Assembly: GCA_964580215.1 (NCBI GenBank)
Contig: CAZOJT010000013.1
Location: 1,268-65,267, forward strand
Direction of reading: 5' to 3'
DNA from: an uncultured Ignavibacteria bacterium
GTDB taxonomy: Bacteria; Zixibacteria; MSB-5A5; SM1-73
Length of the DNA stretch: 64,000 bases
Made by a program: the position numbers and the translations under genes. Within the stretch, counting starts at the first letter, position 1, and each line of letters starts with the position of its first letter. Shown in pieces: positions 4,175 through 61,700 of this stretch. The notes under the pieces were generated by a model. It did not search any database and was not told the DNA's origin. It worked only from the letters and a program-made list of their open reading frames with translations.

Positions 4175-4656
4175 TCCCAACTAACTCTGTTGGGGCGAGG
4201 GTTGAACCCCCGTTCCCGCTTCCCGTTGGTGTTCTTCACCAACGGGAAACGAACGCCGGTGAAAAATACCCTCTCGGAGCAGGAGAGCCAGAGATTCTTC
4301 CTCCCACCTCTGGCGGGACTCAGAATGACACGAGCACTGTCACCCTGAACGAAGTGAAGGGTCTCACGCTCCATAGTCGAGGGTGCCCTCCCAGACGGGT
4401 CTCCGTCACCCTCGACCAAAAACTATGTGGCAGGGTAAGGGCTTGTCCTGAAGGCGCAGGCCGAAGGATACCCTGACACAACACCATCCAGTTACTTCGC
4501 ACACTCCTTAAAAGAGGTCTCTGAAAAGGTGCAGAAATCGGGCGGGCTAAGAGCCCGCCCTACGCGCTCGGGTATTGAATAACAATGATTTAGCCCGCGT
4601 AGGCGGGGCTCCCAGCCCCGCAAGAACGACTTTTTCAGAAATCTCTAAAAGAAATC

Positions 4657-6615: not shown

Positions 6616-6835
6616 AAGGGGGTGTGAAAAAGTTTGTAGGTCGGGTTCCGATCCCGCCTTTGGCGGGAGAGACTTAAAGTTGCGTCAGGAGCTCTACTCC
6701 TGATGCTTCGAGGTGTGTCAGGACTGAAGTCCTAACACAACACAAAAATAAAGGGTAATTAAAATATAGAAATAATACGTAGTATAAATCGAGTTAAGAA
6801 TTAAATTTTAACTAAATTATACACGGAGAATCAAT

Positions 6836-10905: not shown

Positions 10906-11084
10906 ATTTTAATTTCGTTTAAACTATTATATTTTTTTGTAAATCGAATGGCGAGTAATTCTGTCCTGTGGGAATGCCTTTGTCATAAGAATCTTTTTAC
11001 ATGCAGTAAACAATCAACTCATCAATATAGTTCGTAGGTCAGGTGCCCTGAGCACCTGACACCAAGATAAAACCCCATTTATGG

Positions 11085-24356: not shown

Positions 24357-24470
24357 AATTCCCGTCTCTATGGGAGGATTATCTTCTCACCCATAGGGCA
24401 GGGCATTCAGCCCTGCCACAAGATTCTCGGTCGTTCATTAATTACGGGTTAGGCTAAAACCTAACACTCC

Positions 24471-30833: not shown

Positions 30834-31063
30834 AGTAGGTCGGGTTTTCCGCCAAAGGCGAATCCACCTCCGGTGGAAAAGCAATTGTAGGTCCGAACCC
30901 CCCCGCCAACGGCGGGGGTTTCGGACAACAAAAGATTAATAAACAACCGAGAAAATCCGCAGGGATGAACCCTGCGCTACGCAAGCTAATGCACTCAATT
31001 CTCTCGCGTAGCCAAGCCTTTATGGCTTGGATGAACAATTTTTTCGCCGGAACAGCAAAGAGA

Positions 31064-31100
31064 TGTCGGATAGTCCCGCCTTTGGCGGGACATATCCGAC
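31064..31100. repeat. Extended hairpin containing the cccgcc-ttt-ggcggg core (widespread repeat family)
   Basis: tcggatagtcccgcctttggcgggacatatccga. The same core recurs at 6652-6668, 53121-53139, 38045-38063, 17327-17345, 18707-18722, 33212-33230, 50241-50258, 55445-55462, 55563-55580, 44083-44101 and 30893-30911. Confidence 0.8.
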
Positions 31101-36984: not shown

Positions 36985-37212
36985 CCAAATTTGGAGTGTG
37001 TGGATAAATTCTGTGTAGGGACAGGGCTTGTCCCTGTCCTGGCTCCAATAAGGACAGCCACAAGGGTTCATCCTGAAGGGTTGTCCCTACGATTGCCATG
37101 CGATGTTGAACTAAGATCGTCTATAGGGGCGGGAATTTATCCCGCCCCAAGATCTGGATTTTTTAGCAGCCCAAAAAGATTTTGGCTACAACTATCAGAG
37201 GTAATCTAAACT

Positions 37213-37923: not shown

Positions 37924-38126
37924 AAAAATAACAAATTTGACTGTATCGCAGTCCTATTAAAACGCTAACGAAAACATATCGAGCATGAAGACAAGCTCTA
38001 AGCTCCTCTGAGAATGTAGTTGCTCGATTTATCGGGCCCAATCACCGCCTTTGTCCCGCCTCCGGCGGGATAAAAGCGGTATGAATTGGGCAACTACAAT
38101 TTCTTACCAAAGATCAAAGATAAAAA

Positions 38127-41319: not shown

Positions 41320-41396
41320 AGCATATTCAGACAAAATCTACACCGCGTAGCGGAGCCTTCATGGCTCCGCATCCAGCTTTTTAAAATGGTGAAAAA

Positions 41397-43542: not shown

Positions 43543-45150
43543 ATGGCATATCGACATGGTGATAGAAATCAAATGCAACTGCTTCCACCAAACATAGAAG
43601 AATACGTAACTCCGGATGATTCTGTTCGGGCGTATAGTGCCTTTGTGGATTCGCTTTCTCTGGCTGAGTTGGGCATCCTTTGGGATGAACATAAAGTTGG
43701 CAACTCCGAATATAATCCTAAAGCCATGATCAAGCTTTTGGTATATGGCTACTCCTATGGTTTACGCAGTTCTCGGAAATTGGAAATGGCGACTTATCAT
43801 AACCTCTCTTTTATCTGGTCCTATGGATCCAAATTCGGACTTATGGGTGGTCTGATTGAAGGCAATACGCTTTTTGTGGATGGGAGTAAGATAAGGGCGA
43901 ATGCCTCCATTGGTAATACCTGGACACCAGATAGATGTGAACGCTATCTTAAGGAGGTGGATCAGCATATAGAATCCATTCTTTCTGAGTGCGACACTAT
44001 GGATGAACAAGAACAGGATCATTCCTCTCTGGTTAAGCTTTCAGAAGAGCTGAAAGATAAAGAACGTCTTAAATCCAGTCCCGCCTCTGGCGGGATTGAA
44101 AGAACTCCAAGAACAAGAAAGGGAATCAATAAACACCACCGATCCGGATTGTGTTAAGGTCAAAGGGCGTCAAGGCATTCATGCGGGTTATAATGGGCAG
44201 ATCGTGGTGGATGAAAAGCATGGGCTGATAGTGCACAGTGACGTGGTGAATGACGGAGACCCGTCTGGGAAAGTAATGATGTTCATCAGTTTGCCCATCA
44301 GACTTGTAGTGAGCGTAGCGAACCTATTGAACAGGCTAATCAAACCCTGGAACATAAATGTACCAGCGCCTGTGCGGATGCGGGTTATTCTGACATCCAA
44401 GAGTTAAAAAAGATCGATGACCAACATGCTCGTATGAGTGCATACGCATCACCGTTATCGTTCCTTCGCAAAAACAAGCTCATGATAGACCAGTAAAACC
44501 AAATGACAAAGAACAATTTCTTTATGATGAACCGAATGATCGTTATATTTGTCCGCGAGGACATTCCTTGAGTTATACTTTCTTAGATAAGCACAGGAAT
44601 CATAAAGTGTATCAGATTACAGATGCGTATGCTCGTATGAGTGCATACGCACATTCATACGAATAAATCTTTGTGTTTGGAGTGCCAGCATTTTGGTCTT
44701 TGCACCAAAGCTAAATATGGTGGACGAATAAGGCGTCTGATTCATGAGGACATTAAATTAAAACTAGAGCTCTGTAACATAAATTTATTCGCTATTGTAG
44801 TTGCCTGATTTATCAGGCATAGTGACGACAGTGCTCAATAAATTGAGCAACTACAATATCCTGAATTTATGTTACAGCCCACTAGAGCATCAATATAATA
44901 AAGAGTCATCACAAGCAATTTATAAACTAAGAAAAGAAAAGGTGGAACTCGAAGAGTCATACGACTTCCTTTTGGACATGCGTATGCACTCATACGAGCA
45001 TCAAACGAAATTTAGGAGTGACCTCCTTTCTGCTTCGAGGATTGGAAGGAGTTAAAGCAGAAATGTCGCTATTAGCCAGTTGCTTTGATATCACTCGCCT
45101 GATCAACATTGTTGGAGTTCCATTGCTTGTGGCAAAGCTTATGAGTTAAT
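43543..45150 (+). mobile_element. Degenerate IS1182/IS5-superfamily insertion sequence (transposase pseudogene with frameshifts and repeat insertions)
   Basis: The DUF772 N-terminal domain is present (QMQLLPPNIEEYVTPDDSVRAYSAFVDSL). DDE-region pieces appear in other frames (TDPDCVKVKGRQGIHAGYNGQIVVDEKHGLIV, CADAGYSDIQEL). A zinc-finger region and a C-terminal RGLEGVKAEMSLLASCFDITRL follow. Palindromic repeats are inserted at 44426-44449, 44625-44663 and 44978-45002. Confidence 0.6.
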
Positions 45151-45326
45151 CGTTTTTAGGATACATCTCTATGATTCTAGTGAATAAAACCATAATCTTG
45201 TAGAACAAAGTTAATATTGTTCTGTTTTTATTCCAAAACCTAAAACCTTATCTCCCTTAACCAGGTATTATGACACACCCTCAAAGTGGGGAGGGGGAAT
45301 AAGAGGGTGGGGTTTCAATTTCGTGG

Positions 45327-46388
45327 TTACCTTTTCTTTTTAGTAGTTCTCTTCTTTTCTGCTGTCTTCTTTTTCGCCTTTTTAGACTTAGCAGTCACTT
45401 TTCTCTTTGCCGGCTTCTTAACTTTCTTCGGTTTAAGAACCTTTTTAGCTGGTTTTTTGGCCTTTTTCGGTGTAGCAATCTTCTTCTTTTTAAGCGGTTT
45501 CTTAGCCTTTTTCTTTAGTCCCTCCAATTCCTGTTTCATCAAGACCGCCACTTCAGCCGGGCTTTCTGCCACCTTGATTTTTGCCTTTTGGAAGGCAGCG
45601 ACTTTTTCAGCCGCGGTTCCGCTTCCACCGGCGATTATGGCGCCAGCATGTCCCATTCTCTTTCCCGGAGGAGCGGTCCTTCCTGCCACAAAAGCCACCA
45701 CCGGCTTGGTCATGTTTTTCTTTATGAATGCCGCCGCCTCCTCCTCATCTGTTCCACCAATCTCACCGATCAAAACCACCGCCCTGGTCTGGGGGTCTTT
45801 TTCAAACATCTCCAACACGTCCAAAAAGCCTGTCCCCACGATCTGATCTCCACCAGTTCCCAAACAGGTGGATTGCCCCATGCCATTTTGGGTGAGATGA
45901 TACACCACCTCATAGGTCAAGGTTCCACTGCGAGAGACCACTCCCACATTGCCCTTCATATGAATCTGACCCGGCATAATCCCTACCTTGGTCACGCCGG
46001 GGGTAATCAAGCCGGGAGTATTCGGTCCCACCAACCTGGTCTTTTTGCCTTTCAAGTAATTGTACACTTCGAGCATGTCCATGGCGGGAATGCCTTCGCT
46101 TATGCAGATCACCAGATCAATTCCCGCCTCTGCCGCCTCGTAGATGGCATCCACGGCAAATTTTGAGGGGACGTAGATTACCGAGGTATTAGCTTTTGTG
46201 GCATCTCTTGCCTCTTTAACCGAGTCAAAGACTAAAACGCCTTCAACCCTTTCTCCTGCTTTCCCCGGTGTGACCCCAGCCACAACCTTTGTTCCGTAGT
46301 CCAGCATCTGTTTGGTATGAAACGCCCCATCCCGTCCGGTGATCCCCTGAACTATCACCCTGGTATTTTTGTCAATTAGTATGCTCAT
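45327..46388 (-). CDS. sucD: Succinyl-CoA synthetase alpha subunit with an atypical ~65-aa Lys/Ala/Pro-rich C-terminal tail
   Basis: The N-terminus [21 protein letters not shown] is canonical SucD, and the catalytic His region is present. The reading frame continues into [39 protein letters not shown]…KKKR before the stop. Confidence 0.85.
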
Positions 46389-46394
46389 GGAAGT

Positions 46395-46500
46395 TCTCCT
46401 TTTTGTTAATTTATAGATTTTTTTCGGGCTGGGATGAATTCCCAGCCCTATGGGATTGAATGTCTACCTCATAGTCGGAGGAATTTATCCTCCGACATAA
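46395..46500. repeat. REP-like hairpins flanking the RAYT (ggctgggatgaattcccagccc; gtcggaggaatttatcctccgac)
   Basis: A matching hairpin ggctgggatgaattcccagccc lies at 47075-47105 on the other side of the transposase. Hairpins with a gaatttatc loop also occur at 46695-46715, 46760-46785 and 37115-37140. Confidence 0.7.
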
Positions 46501-47058
46501 CCCTCAAGATCAGTCTCACACTTCCCTGTTGCTGAAGAATATTTGTAATTCTCCGGTTTATCTGCTAATTTTGCCCTAACCGGGTTGTCGTGAATATAAT
46601 TTAGTCGTTGAACAAACTCCTTCTTGTTGCGAACAACATGATCGTAGAAGCTTGCCTGCCAGACCTTCGGTTTGGGCAGGGATAAATTCCCTGCCCAAAC
46701 TATGATTCTTAGATTCGCGGGACGAGGACAAATCCTCTGTCCTGTGGTTCTCCGGCTCATAGTCGGGGGAATTTATCCCCCGACTAAGTTGATTATATCT
46801 TCGAGCGAAACGACCTTTGATGTGACGCATCACATCGGAGATGGAATTTCTCTTATCCGGCACCAACATTAAATGAATATGATTAGGCATTACCACAAAA
46901 GCGAGAAGTCTAAATCTTAGCTTTTTCCTAACCTCGAAGATGGTTTGAATCAAAAGATCAGCCGCTTTCCCTTCTGAGAAAATTTTAGTGTTACGGTGCG
47001 TTTTGCTCGTGACAAAATGACAATAGTTCTCAAGGTTGAAACGAGCTACTTTACTCAT
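46485..47058 (-). pseudogene. REP-associated tyrosine transposase (RAYT / IS200-like Y1 HuH), interrupted by a ~130-bp hairpin insertion
   Basis: The N-terminal ORF carries the HuH motif (VMPNHIHLML) and …GRFARRYNQL. The C-terminal part continues in another frame with WQASFYDHVVRN…YIHDNPVRAKL (RAYT signature). Between them lie two gaatttatc-loop hairpins at 46665-46790. Confidence 0.65.
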
Positions 47059-47164
47059 AGTTAAATTCTAAGTCTTATGGCTGGGATGAATTCCCAGCCC
47101 TATGTATTGAATGGATATGTTCACCACTATATGGTTAAGAAATGTTCATTGCGTTGGACTTAGA

Positions 47165-48322
47165 CTAACCCCCGAACATGGTGGTTTGTGTCATTCCCGA
47201 AAGCTCAATCGCTCTCTTTACCACTTCTTCCATGGAGCTGGTGGCGGAGAGGTTTATCTCCTCTAAAATCTTTCTGGCTTTAGCTTCGTTGGTGCCGGTC
47301 AATCTCACCACAATGGGGACTCTTGGCTTTAGTTGTTTGACCGCATAAACTATTCCATTTGCCACATCGTCGCACCGGGTGATCCCTCCGAAGATGTTGA
47401 AAAGGATGGCCTTCACATTCGGGTCCCGCAGGATGATGTTCATGGCACTTACCACCTTCTCCGGGTTGGAGCTTCCTCCGATATCCAAAAAATTAGCGGG
47501 CTCAGCCCCAAATCTTTTTACCAGATCCATGGTAGCCATTGCCAGCCCGGCTCCGTTTACAATGCAACCTATGTTTCCGTCCAGTTTCACAAAGGAAAGC
47601 TCCTTTTCCCTTGCCTCAATTTCTGCTTTTTCCTCCGCATCCAGATCCCGCATCGCCTCGATTTCTGGATGCCTTGCCAGACCAGAATCATCTATGTTTA
47701 TCTTGGCATCTAAAGCCCACACCTCTCCGTCTGGTGTGGTGATGAACGGGTTTATCTCGGCTAAGGAGCAATCGTTTTCCGTGAAGGCGCTGTAGAGTTT
47801 CAAGATAACCGGACAAGTCTTATTGGCGATCTTTCTGTCCGAATAAAGTAGATAGGCTAAATTTCGGGCTTGAAAGTATTGCAAGCCTAAAAGCGGGTCC
47901 ACCTCCAACTTAAAAATCTTCTCTGGGGTCTCCCGGGCCACCTCCTCGATGTCTATTCCTCCTGCCGCTGAGACCATGATCACCGGCTTTTTGCTCTTTC
48001 GGTCGACGATCACACCCAGATAGGCTTCGCTGGCAATGTCTTTACACTCGGTGACTAAAATCTTCTTAACCGGAAGCCCCTTGATCTCCATACCCAAAAT
48101 CTGGGAAGCCATCTCGAATGCTTCATCCGGATTATCCGCCTTCTTTATACCGCCAGCTTTGCCTCTTCCTCCCACATGTACCTGCGCTTTCACCATAACC
48201 GGCTTACCGATCCTTGTGGCAATTTCTCTTGCTTCCTCCGGGGTGGTTGCCATCTCACCGGCAGGAAGAGGAATGCCATACTTGGCAAATATCTGTTTAG
48301 CCTGATATTCGTGTATCTTCAT
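47165..48322 (-). CDS. sucC: Succinyl-CoA synthetase beta subunit
   Basis: MKIHEYQAKQIFAKYGIPLP is the canonical ATP-grasp N-terminus. The start is chosen at the internal Met of the ORF. Confidence 0.9.
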   Translation of the reverse strand: MKIHEYQAKQIFAKYGIPLPAGEMATTPEEAREIATRIGKPVMVKAQVHVGGRGKAGGIKKADNPDEAFEMASQILGMEIKGLPVKKILVTECKDIASEAYLGVIVDRKSKKPVIMVSAAGGIDIEEVARETPEKIFKLEVDPLLGLQYFQARNLAYLLYSDRKIANKTCPVILKLYSAFTENDCSLAEINPFITTPDGEVWALDAKINIDDSGLARHPEIEAMRDLDAEEKAEIEAREKELSFVKLDGNIGCIVNGAGLAMATMDLVKRFGAEPANFLDIGGSSNPEKVVSAMNIILRDPNVKAILFNIFGGITRCDDVANGIVYAVKQLKPRVPIVVRLTGTNEAKARKILEEINLSATSSMEEVVKRAIELSGMTQTTMFGG

Positions 48323-48432
48323 AATGACTCCTTTGGTTTTATCCCCCCTTCTCCACGCCCACTCCACCGTCCGCCGACCGCCGCTAAACCAGTTCTTGCG
48401 GCGGACTGTCGACTGTGGACCGTGGGCGCTTT

Positions 48433-49821
48433 TTATTTCTGATTCGCTGAAGTGGTCGAGATATTTTTCAAAAAAACCTCTGCCTCCTTTAAGAGTCTAT
48501 CTTTTTGGTTTAGTTCAGGGTTATCCAGAACCAGCTCTAAAAGATAATTCAATACCTGTCCCACCAGAGGGGAGGGTGGAATCTTAAAAGTATCCATAAT
48601 ATCATTTCCCTTCACCTCCAAATCCTTCAACCCAAAAGGAGGTTTTCTCTCCAATTCCAGCCTTATCCTCTCCTCCAACTCATCCACGTCTTTGGTGCTT
48701 CCTTCCTTGCCCTGTGCCGTCACATCCGCTCTGCGTAAATCCAGAAGAGAAAACACAAGCTCCCCCCCCATCTTTCTTATCAGTCTCCGCACTCCTTTAT
48801 CAGTCACTCCGGTGGTAAACATGTGCTTATCTATCAGAAGGGTGACCTTTTCAATTATCTGATTGGAGTAGCGCAATCTTTGCAACACCTTCCGGGCGAC
48901 CCTGGCACCTCTTTTCTCATGTCCATAAAAAGTGGCACCTTCTTGGGTGGGAACCTTAGTCTCCGGCTTGGATATATCATGGAAAAGTGCCGCCAGACGA
49001 ATCACCAGATCTCGGGGGGCGAAGTCAACAGCCAATATAGAATGCTCGAACACGTCATAGGCGTGATAGCCGCCCGGCTGGGTTACTCCCACACAATCGG
49101 CTAACTCCGGCATAATCCTTTCTAAAAGCCCCACCCTTTGCATCAATCTGAAGCCAACGCTGGGATATTTAGCTTTAAGCAGTAGCTTGTTTAATTCCTC
49201 CTGAATTCTTTCTGATGAGATGGTGGTGATCAAATCCACATTCTCCTTTAGACTCTGAAGGGTGCCCTCTTCCAGCTCAAATTCAAACCTGGCGGCAAAC
49301 TGTATTCCCCGGAGCATCCTCAAAGGATCGTCCCTAAAAGAGTCGGGATTGGTAATACGGATTAATCTCCTTTTTATGTCTTTTCTTCCATTTAAAGGGT
49401 CCACCAACTCTCCCGTGGAAAGATCCTCCGCCACGGCGTTTATGGTGAAATCCCGGCGGGAAAGGTCATCCTCTACCTTCAGGTTATGATCGTATTCCAC
49501 CTTGAAGTCCTTATGCCCCGGTCCGGTGCTGTATTCCTTGCGAGGCAATGCAACATCAAAGACATGCTCCCCGTTGAATTTTTTGAAAGGCAGAAATTTT
49601 ATCACCCCAAAGGATTTTCCTACCAGATCCACCTTTCCAAATCCACTCAACAGAGAACAAAGCTCATCTATGGGGATTCCGGTTATCAGATAGTCTTTGT
49701 CCTTATCCGACAGGATGGGGGAGATATATTTGTCCCGCACCGCTCCCCCCACCTCGTAGATACTCCCTTTTTTTAGAATCGCCTTTACGATCTGGTCACT
49801 CAATCCCGCTATCTTTTCCAT
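48433..49821 (-). CDS. cca: CCA-adding tRNA nucleotidyltransferase with a C-terminal HD domain
   Basis: VGGAVRDKYI (GGxVRD), the PolyA_pol head domain and an HD motif (HDISKP) are present. Confidence 0.8.
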   Translation of the reverse strand: MEKIAGLSDQIVKAILKKGSIYEVGGAVRDKYISPILSDKDKDYLITGIPIDELCSLLSGFGKVDLVGKSFGVIKFLPFKKFNGEHVFDVALPRKEYSTGPGHKDFKVEYDHNLKVEDDLSRRDFTINAVAEDLSTGELVDPLNGRKDIKRRLIRITNPDSFRDDPLRMLRGIQFAARFEFELEEGTLQSLKENVDLITTISSERIQEELNKLLLKAKYPSVGFRLMQRVGLLERIMPELADCVGVTQPGGYHAYDVFEHSILAVDFAPRDLVIRLAALFHDISKPETKVPTQEGATFYGHEKRGARVARKVLQRLRYSNQIIEKVTLLIDKHMFTTGVTDKGVRRLIRKMGGELVFSLLDLRRADVTAQGKEGSTKDVDELEERIRLELERKPPFGLKDLEVKGNDIMDTFKIPPSPLVGQVLNYLLELVLDNPELNQKDRLLKEAEVFLKNISTTSANQK

Positions 49822-50286
49822 ATAAATTTCAATTCCAAACGAAAGTCGTTCGTTTCTTCAAAATTATGCTTCAGATACTTTTGACTGCCAAGCCATGAAG
49901 GCTTGGCTACGCAAAAATCAGCAATCAAATGCTACACGTTTATTCGTCTATCAGCCAAATGAAGGTGGCACATAATCTATCTTGATACAAACTGAAGCAC
50001 TCGTAGAAAAACCCAAACCTGAGTGCACTAGCCTGCTGGTGTGGTTTTCTTCTTGCGAAAGCAAGCTTTTGCACTCCGAAAAACTCTTTTTCAACAGTCC
50101 CTGAAGGTTGCGGCTACCTTTTTCTGTATTCCTCAATAAGAGCAACTTGGTAGCCGCTCCGCTCTCGGCGGAGCGCTTTTGCTTCTCTTACCTCACCCCC
50201 TGTCCTACGGATCTTCGATCTCCTTCTCCATTTCATGTTGAAAATCCCGCCGGAGGCGGGGGAGAGAGGACAAGGGGGGAGAGGTT

Positions 50287-55098: not shown

Positions 55099-56312
55099 TT
55101 AGCCTTTTGCCTTGATAGAAGATGTTGAGGCGACCATCCAGACATTCATGTACCTCCACCTTGGCCTTGCAGTAGCTTGGGCGGCTTGTATGAGTGCATA
55201 CGCATATTCATTGGGCAGGATCTGAAAAACCTTTCCATTGTAACTTATGGTATTATCCCCAGAAACAGTTCTTTCTTCTTTTAAGCAGAAGATGTCCTTT
55301 AACTTCAACCCCTTAGGTAAGGGTCTATAGGCAGAATCAGGCTCTTTGGCAGAACGTGAAAACATCCGATTGTGCTTTGGAATAAATTGTTCTTTTAGAT
55401 AGCGATTGGCTTCCTCTAAGCTAGAGATATTATGGAGTCTGAGCTCCGAACCCCGCCAAAGGCGGGGGAACACTCCAAACTTTCTCTCAATCCTTCCCTT
55501 GACCTGCGGAGAATAAGCATAGATCATCCTTACTCCTAATTCCTCTAAAGCCCTGGCAAACTGAGTGGTCCCGCCATAGGCGGGATAAGTTAATACTCCA
55601 TACTCTGGTAACGGGTGGTCTTAAAGTTAGAACCACGATCCACATACACACTCAAGGGAATCCCTCTTTTCCGAACAATATCCCTAAATACTCCCATGTT
55701 CTGTTTTATCCCATCAGTTAACACAAATCCTATGGACTCAATTTCGAGCTTGGCTCCCGCTACCTTGCCGGTACTATCATCTACACCTCCAATCAGATAA
55801 AGCCTGGGACCTCTCCCTTCTAACCAATCATGATCGGAGGTGTCAAATTGAACCATCTGACCCTCCCTCGCAGAAGGTTCTCTCCACCGCCTATGCTTAG
55901 GATATCTCCTCTTTTTGACATAAGACTCTTTCCCCAATAAAATCTGCCTCACCGATTCCCTCGAAACCTTTGCGAAGCTCGTATGAGTGCATACGCACAT
56001 TCATACGAATATCCCTTCCTCCTGATTCAAATACTCCGTCATGTGAGTCAGGTTGAAACCTCTATATTTACTCCTATAAAAATGGTCTATCTTATCCCTG
56101 ATCTTCTCCGTAAGCCAACGCGGAGCTTTCTTACCTTTACTTTTATGGATTATCCCTCCCATTCCCTCCTTCTCCACCCGCGCCTTTATCCGATATACCT
56201 GCCGCTCGCTTAATCCTAATATCTCTCCAGCCTCTTTAATCCTAAGATACCCACCTTCTACCTCCGATATTATTTTATACCTCCCCGCCTCTTGCATAGT
56301 CAGGTTTAACAC
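55099..56312 (-). mobile_element. IS481/retroviral-integrase-type (rve DDE) transposase gene split into three ORFs by repeat insertions
   Basis: An N-terminal HTH ORF, a DDE core (QFDTSDHDW…) and a C-terminal SPQVKGRIERKFG are present. The palindromic repeat ctcgtatgagtgcatacgcacattcatacgaa sits at the HTH/core junction (55974-56012). A cccgccataggcggg hairpin lies at the core/C-terminus junction (55563-55580). Another repeat is at 55178-55205. Confidence 0.55.
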
Positions 56313-58123: not shown

Positions 58124-58163
58124 GCAACTCCAGAACCTAACTTAAGTTAGGTTCTGGAGTTGC
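58124..58163. other. Perfect 18-bp-stem hairpin (gcaactccagaacctaac-ttaa-gttaggttctggagttgc)
   Basis: Read directly from the sequence. It is not followed by a T-tract. Confidence 0.6.
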
Positions 58164-58720: not shown

Positions 58721-61700
58721 ATGTCAAAGAAAACAGTAATAGTTCTGGTTCTGTCATTTGCTTTGATTCTACTGATGGTATCCTCTATAGCTATAACGGC
58801 ATATACAACGGATAAGCAATGTGACTGGCAGCCGGGCGATCCTCACAAGATGCACTACCCGCAGTTGCCGGATGAGGATGGCTGGGACGTGAATGCGACC
58901 CAACCTTTGGTCTTAGCAGACGACTGGCAATGTTCGGATTCAGGCTGGGTCAAGGACATCCATTTCTGGGGTTCGTGGAAGAATGGCCTCGAGGGAACGA
59001 TTGTTGGCTTCTGGCTCAGTATCCACTCCAATATCCCTGAAGATCCGCCTTACATTCCCTACAGCAGGCCAGGCGAGACGCTGTGGGAGTTGTACGTTGA
59101 GGATTTCGACTTTACTCCGATCGATCCACCTACCATGGAAGGGTGGTATGATCCTTCCACCGGCGAGGTCATCCCGAACGATCATCAGGCCTACTTCCAG
59201 TACAACATCTGTCTCCACGAACCAGACTGGTTCTGCCAGTACCAGGACACCATCTACTGGTTGAATATCTCTGCAGTGGTTGAGGGTCCTGTCGGAACCC
59301 AGTGGGGCTGGAAGAACTCCGAGGATCACTTTCTGGATGACGCGGTCTGGGCTTTTTGGGGCGAGCTGAACTGGATCGACATTTGGGAACCGTCAACGCC
59401 ACTGTCCAACTTGTTCTGGGTGGCGGTCGACCCGGGTGGGATGCTCGATCCCGGGATGAGTGGTGGAACCAGCTACTTCGATGATGGTACCTCAATCAAT
59501 GGCTGGTACTACTACGAGGACACCGGATGGTGGAATATCTGGTTCTACGATCACCCATTTGATTCCTTGCGCATGAAGGAGGCACACATCGAGTTTGATC
59601 TGTTTGAATACATGACAGGTGAGCCTTCCTGGTTCACCTTTGCTGTCAACTGGTCAACCGACGTGTGGTCCATCGAACAACCCCCTGGCGACAGCATGCC
59701 GCCTCTGCCGGGAGTCTCTCCGGAGGAGCTCTACATTGGTCGCGAGATTCTCTACGATGGTCCGGTTGATCCCGGTCATTATGTCTTTGACTGGGAGTGG
59801 CCTGACTATAACCCAGAGTGGGTCTCCATCGACGTCATGGGTTACAACTTCGTGATCCCCGAAGGAATGGGGTGGATCGAACACGACTGCCGAGGTTCGC
59901 TCGACTTGGCGTTTGTGATCACCGGAGGACCAGAATGTGAGCCAAGCATCGATGTGGAGAAAAAAGTGTGGGATGAGACGCAAGGAGGCTGGGTTGACTC
60001 TACAGACATAGACGTATGCACAGATGCCCAATTTCTCATCACCATCCATAACGATGGAACCTGCTGTGACTTGACCAACATCTATGTTTACGACTTCATG
60101 GACTCGAGCTTGGAATTCCTGGATGCGGTCCCGCCTCCAGATACGGTAAGGTTGGTTCCGGGAGGCACAGGGCTGATCTGGTTAGACCCTGGACCATTAC
60201 CACCTTGCAACACGATTGACATCACGGTCACCGCGCATGTGGTTGGACCAGCTTGCCACCTCGATTCAAACTATGTATGGGCACAGGGCGACTGTGAAGA
60301 ACAGGCTGTGGGTGTATACGATGAAGACGTCGCATACGTGCATGCCACCGAGCCTCCATGGCCCAACCACAAGATGCACTACCCGCAACTGCCAGATCCA
60401 AATGGCTGGGACGTTGTGGCGACCATGGGGCATGATCTCCATCCGGGGATAGTGGTAGCAGATGACTTCATGTGTTCAAAATCACTCCCCATCACAGATA
60501 TTCACTTCTGGGGTTCATGGCTGTACGACGTAGAGGCACCTATTTTTGGCTTCTTCCTATCTATCCATGACAACGTCATTGGACCTCCGAGCCATCCAGG
60601 CGAGGAGCTGTGGTCAGCCTACATCACAGACTACGAAATGGTCCCGGAAGGTGAGGGTCCGCAAGGATGGTATGATCCGTTTGAGGGATGGTATGAGCAA
60701 TCCAACCACATCATGTATTACCGATACGACATAGACAGCATCCCGGAGCCATTCTACCAGGATAGTGGGACCATTTACTGGCTGAACATCATAGCCGACA
60801 TTGGTCCACCAGGGTATCAGGGATTTCCTGAGCCGCCGTTATGGGGTTGGAAGACCTCATTGGATCATTGGATGGATGATGCGGTGTGGTCCGTGTTTAT
60901 GCCGCCTTATGCGTGGACTCCGCTGTACGACCCGATAACCGGAGAGACGCTTGACATGGCGTTTGTGATCACCGGGGAGGCTCCTTGCGACCCACCAAAT
61001 ATCAACTGCCCGAGTGATGAGACCCAGAACCAGAACGGCGTTTATACCACCATCACCCAGTGGACCGCAGACGATGGAAATCCGGGTGATCCCAATGTTT
61101 GGTTAACCAGTGTTACGGTTCGGCCGCCCCTGCCACCTGGAATCTCAGTTGCCGTCGTGAATGTCGATCCACCCGGTCTTCCCGCAAAGACAGCAACCGG
61201 GACGGTTACCTATACCGTGGCCAATCACTGCCAAGCTGGTGGTCCCATAATCCTGATGGCTAAAAACAACTGTCCACCACCAAACACGGCTACATGCTCA
61301 TTCGACGTGATTTTGACCAACGACCCGCCTGCTATCACCCAGCCCGATTCCCTCGAAGGCGTTGTGAACGATGTTGTGCAGTATGACATCACCGGCAACG
61401 ATCCGGACGGAGACGTTATTGAGGACCAAGCCTCCATACGCATTGAGCCCGACTGTGGCAACTACTCAATAACCAGAACTGCAGGATCTGGAACTCCTAC
61501 AGGCACCTGGCAGATCACTTGGGACACTTTTGGTTGCACAGCTTGCCAGACCTACCTGGTTATCCACGATCTGACTGATGGTTGCGATACCTCCTGGTGC
61601 ACCACCAAGGTGCATCTCTCTGAGCCGGTGGGATGGTGCTGGAAGGATTCATTCCCGGATTATGCTCCCAACGGCATGCCAGACATCGACCAGAGGCAGG

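Follow-up and report, generated by a model that had tools for sequence, protein, structure and literature searches.

A RAYT gene with in-frame REP hairpin units between sucC and sucD, probably inactivated by a four-nucleotide insertion

The spacer between sucC and sucD

We analysed a 64,000-nucleotide (nt) stretch of DNA, hereafter the window, from an uncultured Ignavibacteria bacterium with a GTDB lineage in the Zixibacteria (contig CAZOJT010000013.1 of assembly GCA_964580215.1, positions 1,268 to 65,267), and focused on a transposase gene and its hairpins that lie between the two genes of succinyl-CoA synthetase. On the minus strand, the upstream operon gene sucC (beta subunit; 47165-48322; Pfam ATP-grasp_2, 231.7 bits, and Ligase_CoA, 104.8 bits) and sucD (alpha subunit; 45327-46388; CoA_binding, 100.9 bits, and Ligase_CoA, 83.9 bits; also Succ_CoA_lig) are set apart by 776 bp, in line with the roughly 780 bp given in an earlier note on this DNA, and sucD is preceded by its own AAGGAG Shine-Dalgarno sequence. 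The spacer contains a gene for a REP-associated tyrosine transposase (RAYT, or TnpAREP; REP, repetitive extragenic palindromic) in sense orientation with respect to the suc operon, together with REP-type hairpin units around and inside the gene.

Two overlapping minus-strand open reading frame (ORF) pieces are found in the spacer (46576-47058, 160 amino acids (aa); 46485-46760, 91 aa). The first contains the N-terminal part of the RAYT (46701-47058, minus strand), with the HUH motif as NHIH and helix αC, which is in frame up to the foot of the hairpin unit called H3 below; its mechanical ORF continues out of frame to 46576. This piece matches Pfam Y1_Tnp (46.5 bits, profile positions 6-83). 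The C-terminal part (46485-46696, minus strand), located with tblastn, is in the +1 frame and carries WQASFYDH on strand β4, YIHDNPV with the catalytic tyrosine, and YKYSS; its mechanical ORF begins at 46760. A naive join of the two pieces (153 aa) scores 124.8 bits over profile positions 3-146 of 146 with the NCBIfam model NF047646, “REP-associated tyrosine transposase” (cut-off 80 bits). The IS200 model NF033573 reaches 41 bits, under its cut-off of 55. Likewise, tblastn with an intact homolog as the query returns two high-scoring segment pairs, residues 1-111 (47058-46726) and 107-175 (46694-46488), offset by +1. The pieces therefore align contiguously to a single RAYT, with the catalytic-core motifs NHIH, WQASFYDH and YIHDNPV all present, and the earlier note's view of them as one RAYT-type Y1 transposase with its C-terminal portion in a different frame is borne out.

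The AlphaFold2 model that we used is of the intact homolog P0011 rather than of the broken window copy (predicted TM-score 0.73; loci and proteins of relatives are cited by L and P numbers). Its best match in the PDB is 4ER8_A, the E. coli TnpAREP with a REP hairpin (E = 3.5e-8, TM-score 0.64-0.68), followed by the TnpA structures of IS200, IS608 and ISDra2. The gene in the spacer is thus a RAYT/TnpAREP of the HUH-Y1 family, and no second RAYT copy was found within the 64-kb window by tblastn with the intact homolog.

The hairpin units share a common anatomy, in which a foot CATAG is followed by five variable G-rich stem bases and an invariant GGAATT[C/T]ATCC, giving a 9-bp stem and a 5-nt loop. 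Across 54 units, the foot bases A4, T5, A6 and G7 are each at least 90% conserved and read ATAG, where the canonical foot is GT[AG]G. Unit orientation alternates around and inside the gene, in the order H1 (forward), H2 (reverse), H3' (degenerate, forward), H3 (forward), H4 (reverse) and H5 (forward). The gene is flanked in inverted fashion by H1 upstream and H4 at the stop codon, with H5 as an additional forward unit. Folded as single-stranded DNA, the hairpins of the locus reach -7.4 to -16.4 kcal/mol (z -3.3 to -7.9).

H1 (47079-47104, minus strand; foot CATAG, 8-9 bp stem, loop ATTCA; -10.1 kcal/mol, z -5.7) lies 21 nt upstream of the RAYT ATG, and a unit occupies the equivalent place in L001, L003, L007-L010 and L089-L091. 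H5 (46427-46452, minus strand; -11.7 kcal/mol) is located between H4 and the sucD ribosome-binding site, is identical to H1, and is limited to the subclade of the window, L006, L007, L008 and L009 plus L089 and L090. The 26-nt unit CATAGGGCTGGGAATTCATCCCAGCC that constitutes both has exactly these two occurrences in the window, both on the minus strand, and gave zero matches in 100 shuffles; the claim that an identical hairpin stands on both sides of the RAYT is therefore correct. H4 (46470-46496, plus strand; -10.6 kcal/mol, z -6.4) encodes the C-terminal VGG, and the RAYT stop codon TAA (46485-46487) sits in its loop. A stop codon (TAA or TGA) is also found in the H4 loop of L001, L003, L007-L010 and L090.

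Three further units are inside the gene. H2 (46758-46786, plus strand; 11-bp stem, -13.2 kcal/mol, z -5.7) is translated in frame as SRGINSPDY and aligns with the in-frame H2 of all intact relatives. H3' (46720-46746, minus strand; foot CACAG, -7.4 kcal/mol, z -3.3) is translated as HRTEDLSSS and belongs to an extra 42-nt (14-codon) module that aligns with the extra module of L003 (columns 442-483 of the whole-spacer alignment, A3); the protein P0002 carries YKTRDLSSF as a counterpart of this peptide. H3 (46670-46704, minus strand; -16.4 kcal/mol, z -7.9) would encode HRAGNLSLPKP and has a 13-bp stem, where its homologs in relatives have 9-bp stems. Of the units of the locus, the earlier note had recognised the two internal hairpins with a gaatttatc-type loop, at 46760-46786 in H2 and at 46670-46700 in H3, and had overlooked both the degenerate H3' and the well-formed H4 that holds the stop codon. 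No Rfam family matches the hairpins of the locus (46300-47250). Two matches to group II D5 in this interval at E <= 1 (18 bits, against cut-offs of 61-65) were dismissed as chance.

In-frame hairpins and the frameshift

The closest public proteins are 175, 189, 203-208 and 232 aa long, and the named ones are labelled Zixibacteria. In alignments of these homologs, H2 is translated as SRG(M/I)NSPDY and H3 as HRAGN(L/S)S(L/S)P, and extra 14-codon modules explain the length classes. The DNA of L001, L003 and L007 has the same layout, with H1 preceding the ATG, H2 and H3 continuing the reading frame, and H4 holding the stop codon. In-frame REP units between the HUH motif and the catalytic tyrosine are found in all intact relatives; in the window, this frame is broken by 4 nt. 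Judged from these alignments, the internal units are ancestral and in frame.

To place the encoded peptide in the protein, we compared homologs with the E. coli structure. In the phmmer alignment to 4ER8, homolog residues 86-115 stand opposite only six chain residues (86-91), with no gap near αB, and in the P0011 model residues 93-118, between the helix 73-92 and the strand 122-126, have a predicted local distance difference test score (pLDDT) below 50. On the basis of this alignment gap and the low pLDDT, the hairpin-encoded peptide is predicted to form a disordered loop that joins helix αC to strand β4.

The lesion itself consists of four extra bases (sense GTTT or TTTG; 46697-46700, minus strand, with placement ambiguous within 46696-46700; columns 484-487 of alignment A3) that cause a +1 frameshift. 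The window alone has CATAG^TTTG^GGCAGGG, with gaps in all six relatives of the alignment, and the lesion-bearing sequence around 46660-46710 is CATAGTTTGGGC. Deleting the four bases yields an intact 189-aa ORF with NHIH, WQASFYDH, YIHDNPV and YKYSS, in which only two substitutions, D59N and I127V, fall at clade-invariant positions; if the frameshift were bypassed, the expected junction peptide would be KNHSWAGNLSLPK. The extra bases are complementary to AAAC (46670-46673), which follows the 3' arm of H3, encodes Pro-Lys-Pro, and is shared with L007 and L009. The insertion lengthens the H3 stem from 9 to 13 bp and makes H3 the most stable hairpin of the locus. Given that the inserted bases are exactly complementary to bases beyond the opposite arm, we infer that they arose through the established mechanism of replication template switching in a quasipalindrome (PMC7202029). 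In the mutations described there, an imperfect inverted repeat is likewise perfected by an insertion templated on the opposite arm, although our case is deduced from one natural allele rather than measured.

Hairpin-rich repeats are prone to assembler errors, and the frame break could in principle be an assembly or sequencing artefact of a gene that is intact in vivo. However, the lesion allele is found in three assemblies, the window and L092 and L093, and the junction CATAGTTTGGGCAGGG is identical in all of them. It is present in a contig of sample 3300031337 from JGI (99.91% identity over 2233 nt, with 2 single-nucleotide polymorphisms) and in a contig of Logan run SRR8556697 (100% over 1304 nt). 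These two assemblies come from different data sets, and a templated 4-nt insertion is atypical as a read error. Because the same junction recurs in the JGI and Logan contigs, it is not an assembly artefact of the window, and we consider the probability of an artefact to be negligible.

The earlier note had proposed that a previously uninterrupted RAYT was inactivated when a block of about 130 bp, made up of two REP hairpins, transposed into the ORF. It is true that REP units did enter the ORF at some point in the deep past, and that the insert-free RAYTs P0042, P0045 and P0056 are about 153 aa long, such that the window gene has about 110 extra nt of hairpin units at this place. Yet these units are found, in frame and at an identical position, in every intact member of the clade, the frame is restored by removing only 4 nt, and the units show synonymous-site constraint and compensatory changes in relatives down to 42-44% identity (described below). 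The units thus entered the gene long before it was inactivated, the two events are unrelated, and inactivation by a hairpin block is highly improbable. The break that split the ORF is instead the window-specific 4-nt insertion. The broader suggestion of a REPtron (in the sense of PMC6006769) between sucC and sucD with an inactivated RAYT holds in that the locus is REPtron-like and its ORF is broken, but not in that a hairpin insertion broke it. For annotation, the caution that follows is that such seemingly inserted hairpins are native parts of the gene, and ORFs of this kind should not be called interrupted by insertion.

It is also very unlikely that the gene is still alive, either by +1 ribosomal frameshifting by way of the 13-bp hairpin or through separately made halves that assemble into an active enzyme. 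In favor of this idea, the catalytic motifs are all still intact, the frameshifted allele persists in three assemblies, the required +1 shift falls directly 5' of a very stable hairpin (-16.4 kcal/mol) in a loop predicted to be disordered, and an ATG is available at 46760 in the downstream frame. However, this ATG lacks a Shine-Dalgarno sequence at the proper distance, the codons CAU AGU UUG GGC include no rare codon, no stop codon and no recognisable +1 shifty motif, and β4 is an integral strand of the HUH sheet, which makes a split structurally unfavourable. Furthermore, half of the gene is missing from a sister genome, and no clade member other than the window copy has Asn in place of the clade-invariant Asp before the HUH histidines (D59N); both observations are consistent with relaxed constraint in the subclade. 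For reference, several TnpAREP subclasses have NHxH as their consensus HUH motif (Table 1, PMC6006769). A programmed frameshift or transcriptional slippage was rejected separately, as the sequence has no slippery motif or homopolymer run. We conclude that the gene was inactivated recently in the window genome by the 4-nt insertion at the base of H3.

Inheritance, dispersal and constraint

The gene order AA kinase, CCA-adding enzyme, sucC, RAYT, sucD is constant in every relative examined (L001-L011 and L088-L091; SucC identity 81-94%, RAYT identity down to 44%), and the sucC of the window is 89-94% identical at the amino acid level to its counterparts upstream of the RAYT in relatives. Because the order sucC-RAYT-sucD is kept across all of these genomes, down to the most divergent RAYTs, the insertion of the RAYT between sucC and sucD is ancient and vertically inherited, and not the recent REPtron insertion that the earlier note implied. 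The nearest genome in our species collection is Zixibacteria SM23_73_3 (L006/L013, LJUX01000030.1), where the stretch from H1 to H3 is gone and the N-terminal half of the RAYT with it. What remains (L006 6197-6240) is a hairpin with the stem of H1 fused to the sequence downstream of H3 (…KVWQESFYDH), and the C-terminal half, H4 and H5 are kept. This loss is a deletion between two same-orientation units. With two independent inactivations in close relatives, and with L007, L008 and L009 intact, the data suggest that the RAYT is dispensable in the subclade of the window.

Two side observations concern these relatives. First, L007 (CAYOFL010000043.1), labelled “uncultured Ignavibacteria bacterium”, has a SucD that is 97.5% identical to that of the window and an intact 175-aa RAYT with the same five units, and its label is at odds with those of the other relatives, which read Zixibacteria. 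Second, the SucD of the window has a C-terminal tail of about 65 aa beyond the Pfam domains (45327-45524, minus strand) that is rich in Lys, Ala and Pro and resembles histone H1. This tail is also found in SM23_73_3 (L006); the SucD of L001 and L003 is shorter (325 aa).

We also looked for units of the sucCD-RAYT family away from the locus. In the other 63 kb of the window there are two, both intergenic and on the plus strand: one of the same family at 37120-37148 (CTATAG-GGGCGGGAATTTATCCCGCCCC; -12.9 kcal/mol) and a variant at 24392-24417 (CATAG-GGCAGGGCATTCAGCCCTGCC; -11.0 kcal/mol). None was found in the flanks of the relatives (about 60 kb). A GTDB-wide scan of 185,579 species genomes with the degenerate pattern CATAGGGCWGGGAATTYATCCCWGCC, which covers two common stem variants, returned only two RAYT loci; this collection does not include the window's own genome, and the unit counts are therefore not a census of the source genome. 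On a genome-wide scale, the RAYT-driven REP proliferation that the earlier note had suggested is not supported by these counts. REP proliferation is visible only locally, in the variable number of modules and in the array of L090 (GCA_964517195.1, CAZFBO010000084.1, 1066-1945), where 11 alternating units around and in the RAYT gene form an array like a bacterial interspersed mosaic element (BIME). The L090 protein, P0020 (204 aa), has a duplicated H2-H3 doublet.

A scan of metagenomes with a profile of the clade identified about 6 close loci among 80; the rest are other RAYT types that have different REP families and in-frame hairpins. Strong in-frame hairpins occur at the same site in several other RAYT clades (L012, L029, L031, L032, L042 and L065), and in-frame hairpins at the αC-β4 site are thus widespread among RAYTs. 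In the unrelated clades of L029, L031, L032, L042, L065 and L068 (1408-2193), the hairpins are bounded by the helix following the HUH strand on one side and by the WQ strand on the other, with stems of 12-22 bp. L032 has a GTAG…CTAC “double-foot” unit and L068 has five tandem 13-aa modules, ESRFQGGDKAFLG.

The embedded hairpins are conserved beyond what the protein would require. When ten ORFs are aligned by codon, two sequences that agree in an amino acid also agree in its codon in 88% of cases within the H2, H3 and H4 codons and in 53% elsewhere, a level that none of 2000 random column sets reaches. In the hairpin codons, Arg is always CGG and Ser is always TCC. Where amino acids change, compensatory pairs are seen: in L089, GGG>CGG (G94R) is accompanied by CCC>GCC (P98A), and in L010 and L091, AGT>AGC is accompanied by GAC>GGC (D99G). 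The orthologous units of L011/L088, L089 and L012 differ in their stems and share GGAATTYATCC. Across the 54 distinct units, 6 of the 9 stem pairs change on both sides; this set was chosen with a pairing filter, and only the diversity of pair types counts.

One possible explanation for this constraint, which we put forward tentatively and regard as doubtful, is that the embedded REP units are selected cis-acting sites rather than tolerated junk, either protected “master copies” or sites by which the enzyme recognises or regulates its own gene, and, more broadly, that the αC-β4 insertions defining TnpAREP subclasses 2.2 and 2.6 are translated REP hairpins in origin. Both the synonymous-site constraint and the in-frame hairpins of other RAYT clades are compatible with such a scenario. 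The αC-β4 insertions of these subclasses have been proposed to aid REP recognition.

A promoter and terminator scan of 45200-48500 found no sense-strand promoter or terminator in the spacer, where the terminator-like calls are the hairpins read antisense, with weak T tails. Based on this result, the RAYT is probably co-transcribed with sucCD. In other operons, REPs are known to act as mRNA stabilisers or to set expression ratios. The hairpins might accordingly be kept mainly as RNA elements of the sucCD transcript, stabilising the mRNA or setting the SucC:SucD ratio, with the RAYT ORF as a passenger. Consistent with this, the gene and all of its units are inside the operon, the units are conserved at synonymous sites, and they survive in the window and in SM23_73_3 despite a broken RAYT. 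However, most relatives, down to 44% identity, have an unbroken RAYT ORF in which the catalytic residues are conserved, and the protein is therefore itself under selection. Moreover, the conserved 5' foot CATAG and the alternating orientation are DNA-level features of REPs and BIMEs, orientation would matter little for an RNA stabiliser, and the hairpins match no Rfam family. An RNA role of this kind is unlikely as the main reason for their maintenance, though compatible with the explanation that we favor.

The mechanism that we propose is based on what is known of the family, from IS200/IS605 TnpA and the E. coli TnpAREP. By analogy with these family members, the enzyme would bind the folded single-stranded hairpin and would cut and rejoin DNA beside the foot tetranucleotide. 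Since the gene itself contains units, this chemistry, or else recombination of units that share an orientation, could alter the number of in-frame modules (hence the 175, 189, 203 and 232-aa variants), and unit-to-unit events could also delete gene segments, such as H1 to H3 in SM23_73_3. A template switch at the base of H3 would have added the 4 nt, lengthened the stem and broken the frame.

Overall, we think it very probable that the spacer holds a vertically inherited RAYT with native, in-frame cognate REP units that was recently inactivated by a 4-nt insertion. Several points weigh against this interpretation. Cleavage of these hairpins by the enzyme of the clade is argued by analogy, and their foot, ATAG, departs from the canonical GT[AG]G. 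The 95% pairing of the 54-unit set does not count as independent evidence, because the set was picked with a pairing filter. Synonymous-site conservation could reflect gene conversion among units rather than purifying selection, and some conversion is favored by the fact that, in each genome, H1 and H5 have the same loop variant. The template-switch origin of TTTG concerns one event, and a random 4-mer would be complementary by chance 1 time in 256. The change from Asp to Asn next to the HUH histidines could mean that function was lost earlier, or nothing. Finally, the dispersed population is small (2 units in the 63 kb of the window, none in the flanks of relatives), such that a transposase-like role in spreading REPs is not evident.

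The window contains additional REP-like hairpins of other kinds. Hairpins with a GCGTAG or GTAG foot and different stems and loops are found at 30958-30976 (minus), 31012-31030 (plus), 41350-41370 (plus), 49887-49907 (minus), 4540-4560 (minus), 4603-4621 (plus) and 11038-11060 (plus). They resemble the REPs that flank the RAYTs of L018 (from the SM23_73_3 data set), L021/L022 and L016, and the source genome probably hosts several REP/RAYT systems with genes outside the window. A BIME-like intergenic cluster at 37017-37148 combines a hairpin with a GTAG foot (37019-37039), a degenerate element in reverse orientation, also GTAG-footed, that ends near 37092, and the sucCD-RAYT-family unit at 37120-37148. 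A small hairpin, TCCCGCC-NNN-GGCGGGA, recurs at least 4 times (6652-6668, 38054-38070, 44079-44095, 55569-55585), with variants at 31073-31091 and 55451-55467, and may be a terminator type or another repeat family. Lastly, a perfect 40-nt palindrome with 18-bp arms (58124-58163; GCAACTCCAGAACCTAAC-TTAA-GTTAGGTTCTGGAGTTGC) is intergenic, before a 1540-aa ORF at 58721.

Relation to known REP systems

REPs inside a tnpAREP gene without disruption of its frame have been described for TnpAREP subclass 2.4, or RAYT group 4 (Quentin, Siguier, Chandler & Fichant 2018, BMC Genomics 19:475, PMC6006769), and the phenomenon is therefore already known. Like subclass 2.4, the present genes have an insert of variable length made of short DNA repeats, hairpin units with a foot, some of them with a “double foot”, and a copy number in the genome that appears low. 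In contrast, the insert of subclass 2.4 is at β3-αC and no C-terminal extension is reported for it, whereas here the insert is at αC-β4 and an extension of the YKYSS type is present; ATAG replaces GT[AG]G as the foot, and the named matches and the nearest genome contig are Zixibacteria. Subclass 2.4 is also characterised by an 8-aa insertion at the end of αB (PMC6006769). Assignment to this subclass was dropped, since the insert is placed downstream of the helix following the HUH strand and upstream of the WQ strand, the alignment to 4ER8 shows no gap near αB, and the YKYSS extension is present.

A second comparison is with subclass 2.6 (RAYT group 5, mostly Bacteroidetes), whose members have a median length of 179 aa, a 21-aa insertion at αC-β4, a C-terminal extension with a conserved SS, the motifs NH[LIV]H, WQ and YIH[QN]NP, and flanking “atypical secondary structures” with few copies elsewhere (PMC6006769). 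Compared by description only, the window gene is similar, with NHIH, WQ and YIHDNP, an insert of about 24-38 aa at αC-β4, and YKYSS. It differs in that a hairpin-encoded insertion is not stated for subclass 2.6 (PMC6006769) and in that most of the present clade has DHIH. In length, insert site and motifs as read from sequence, the clade looks closer to subclass 2.6 than to subclass 2.4.

Other systems share individual features with the locus. The E. coli TnpAREP and its REPtron (4ER8; Messing et al. 2012, PMC3479197) have the same HUH-Y1 fold, a single gene flanked by inverted REPs, and units made of a foot tetranucleotide and a GC-rich hairpin. The E. coli REPtron, however, has no REPs in the ORF, a GTAG foot, longer bulged stems and hundreds of dispersed copies, compared with only 2 dispersed units per 63 kb here. 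As in REPIN-RAYT systems (Bertels & Rainey 2011, PMC3116915; Bertels et al. 2017, PMC5581495), the RAYT is present once at its locus and nowhere else in the window, is inherited vertically at a fixed position, as is expected of RAYTs (PMC5581495), and is associated with inverted REP pairs whose feet face each other (H2/H3 and H5/H4). Unlike in those systems, no large REPIN population is seen, and the doublets are in and at the RAYT gene itself. With the IS200/IS605 insertion sequences, the gene shares the catalytic family of TnpA and, by analogy, the logic of hairpin-plus-guide recognition. It differs from them in its score with the IS200 model NF033573, which is below the cut-off, and in a fixed, syntenic position rather than multi-copy mobility.

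The element belongs to a known class, the RAYTs with in-frame REPs, represented here by a recent pseudogene, and it is not a new class of system. As a natural example, it presents a domesticated HUH transposase gene that is partly made of its own substrate hairpins and that resides inside a core metabolic operon. Among close relatives the gene is found in three states: complete, with its frame shifted by a 4-nt insertion templated on a hairpin, and with half of it deleted between two hairpins. For annotation, this means that the real lesion in such a gene can be a tiny indel. To the in-frame REPs documented by Quentin et al. (2018), our analysis adds a lineage with Zixibacteria-named, uncultured relatives, as well as quantitative evidence for nucleotide-level constraint on the embedded hairpins. 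If the embedded units are selected cis-acting sites, the αC-β4 insertions that define whole TnpAREP subclasses would stem from translated REP hairpins.

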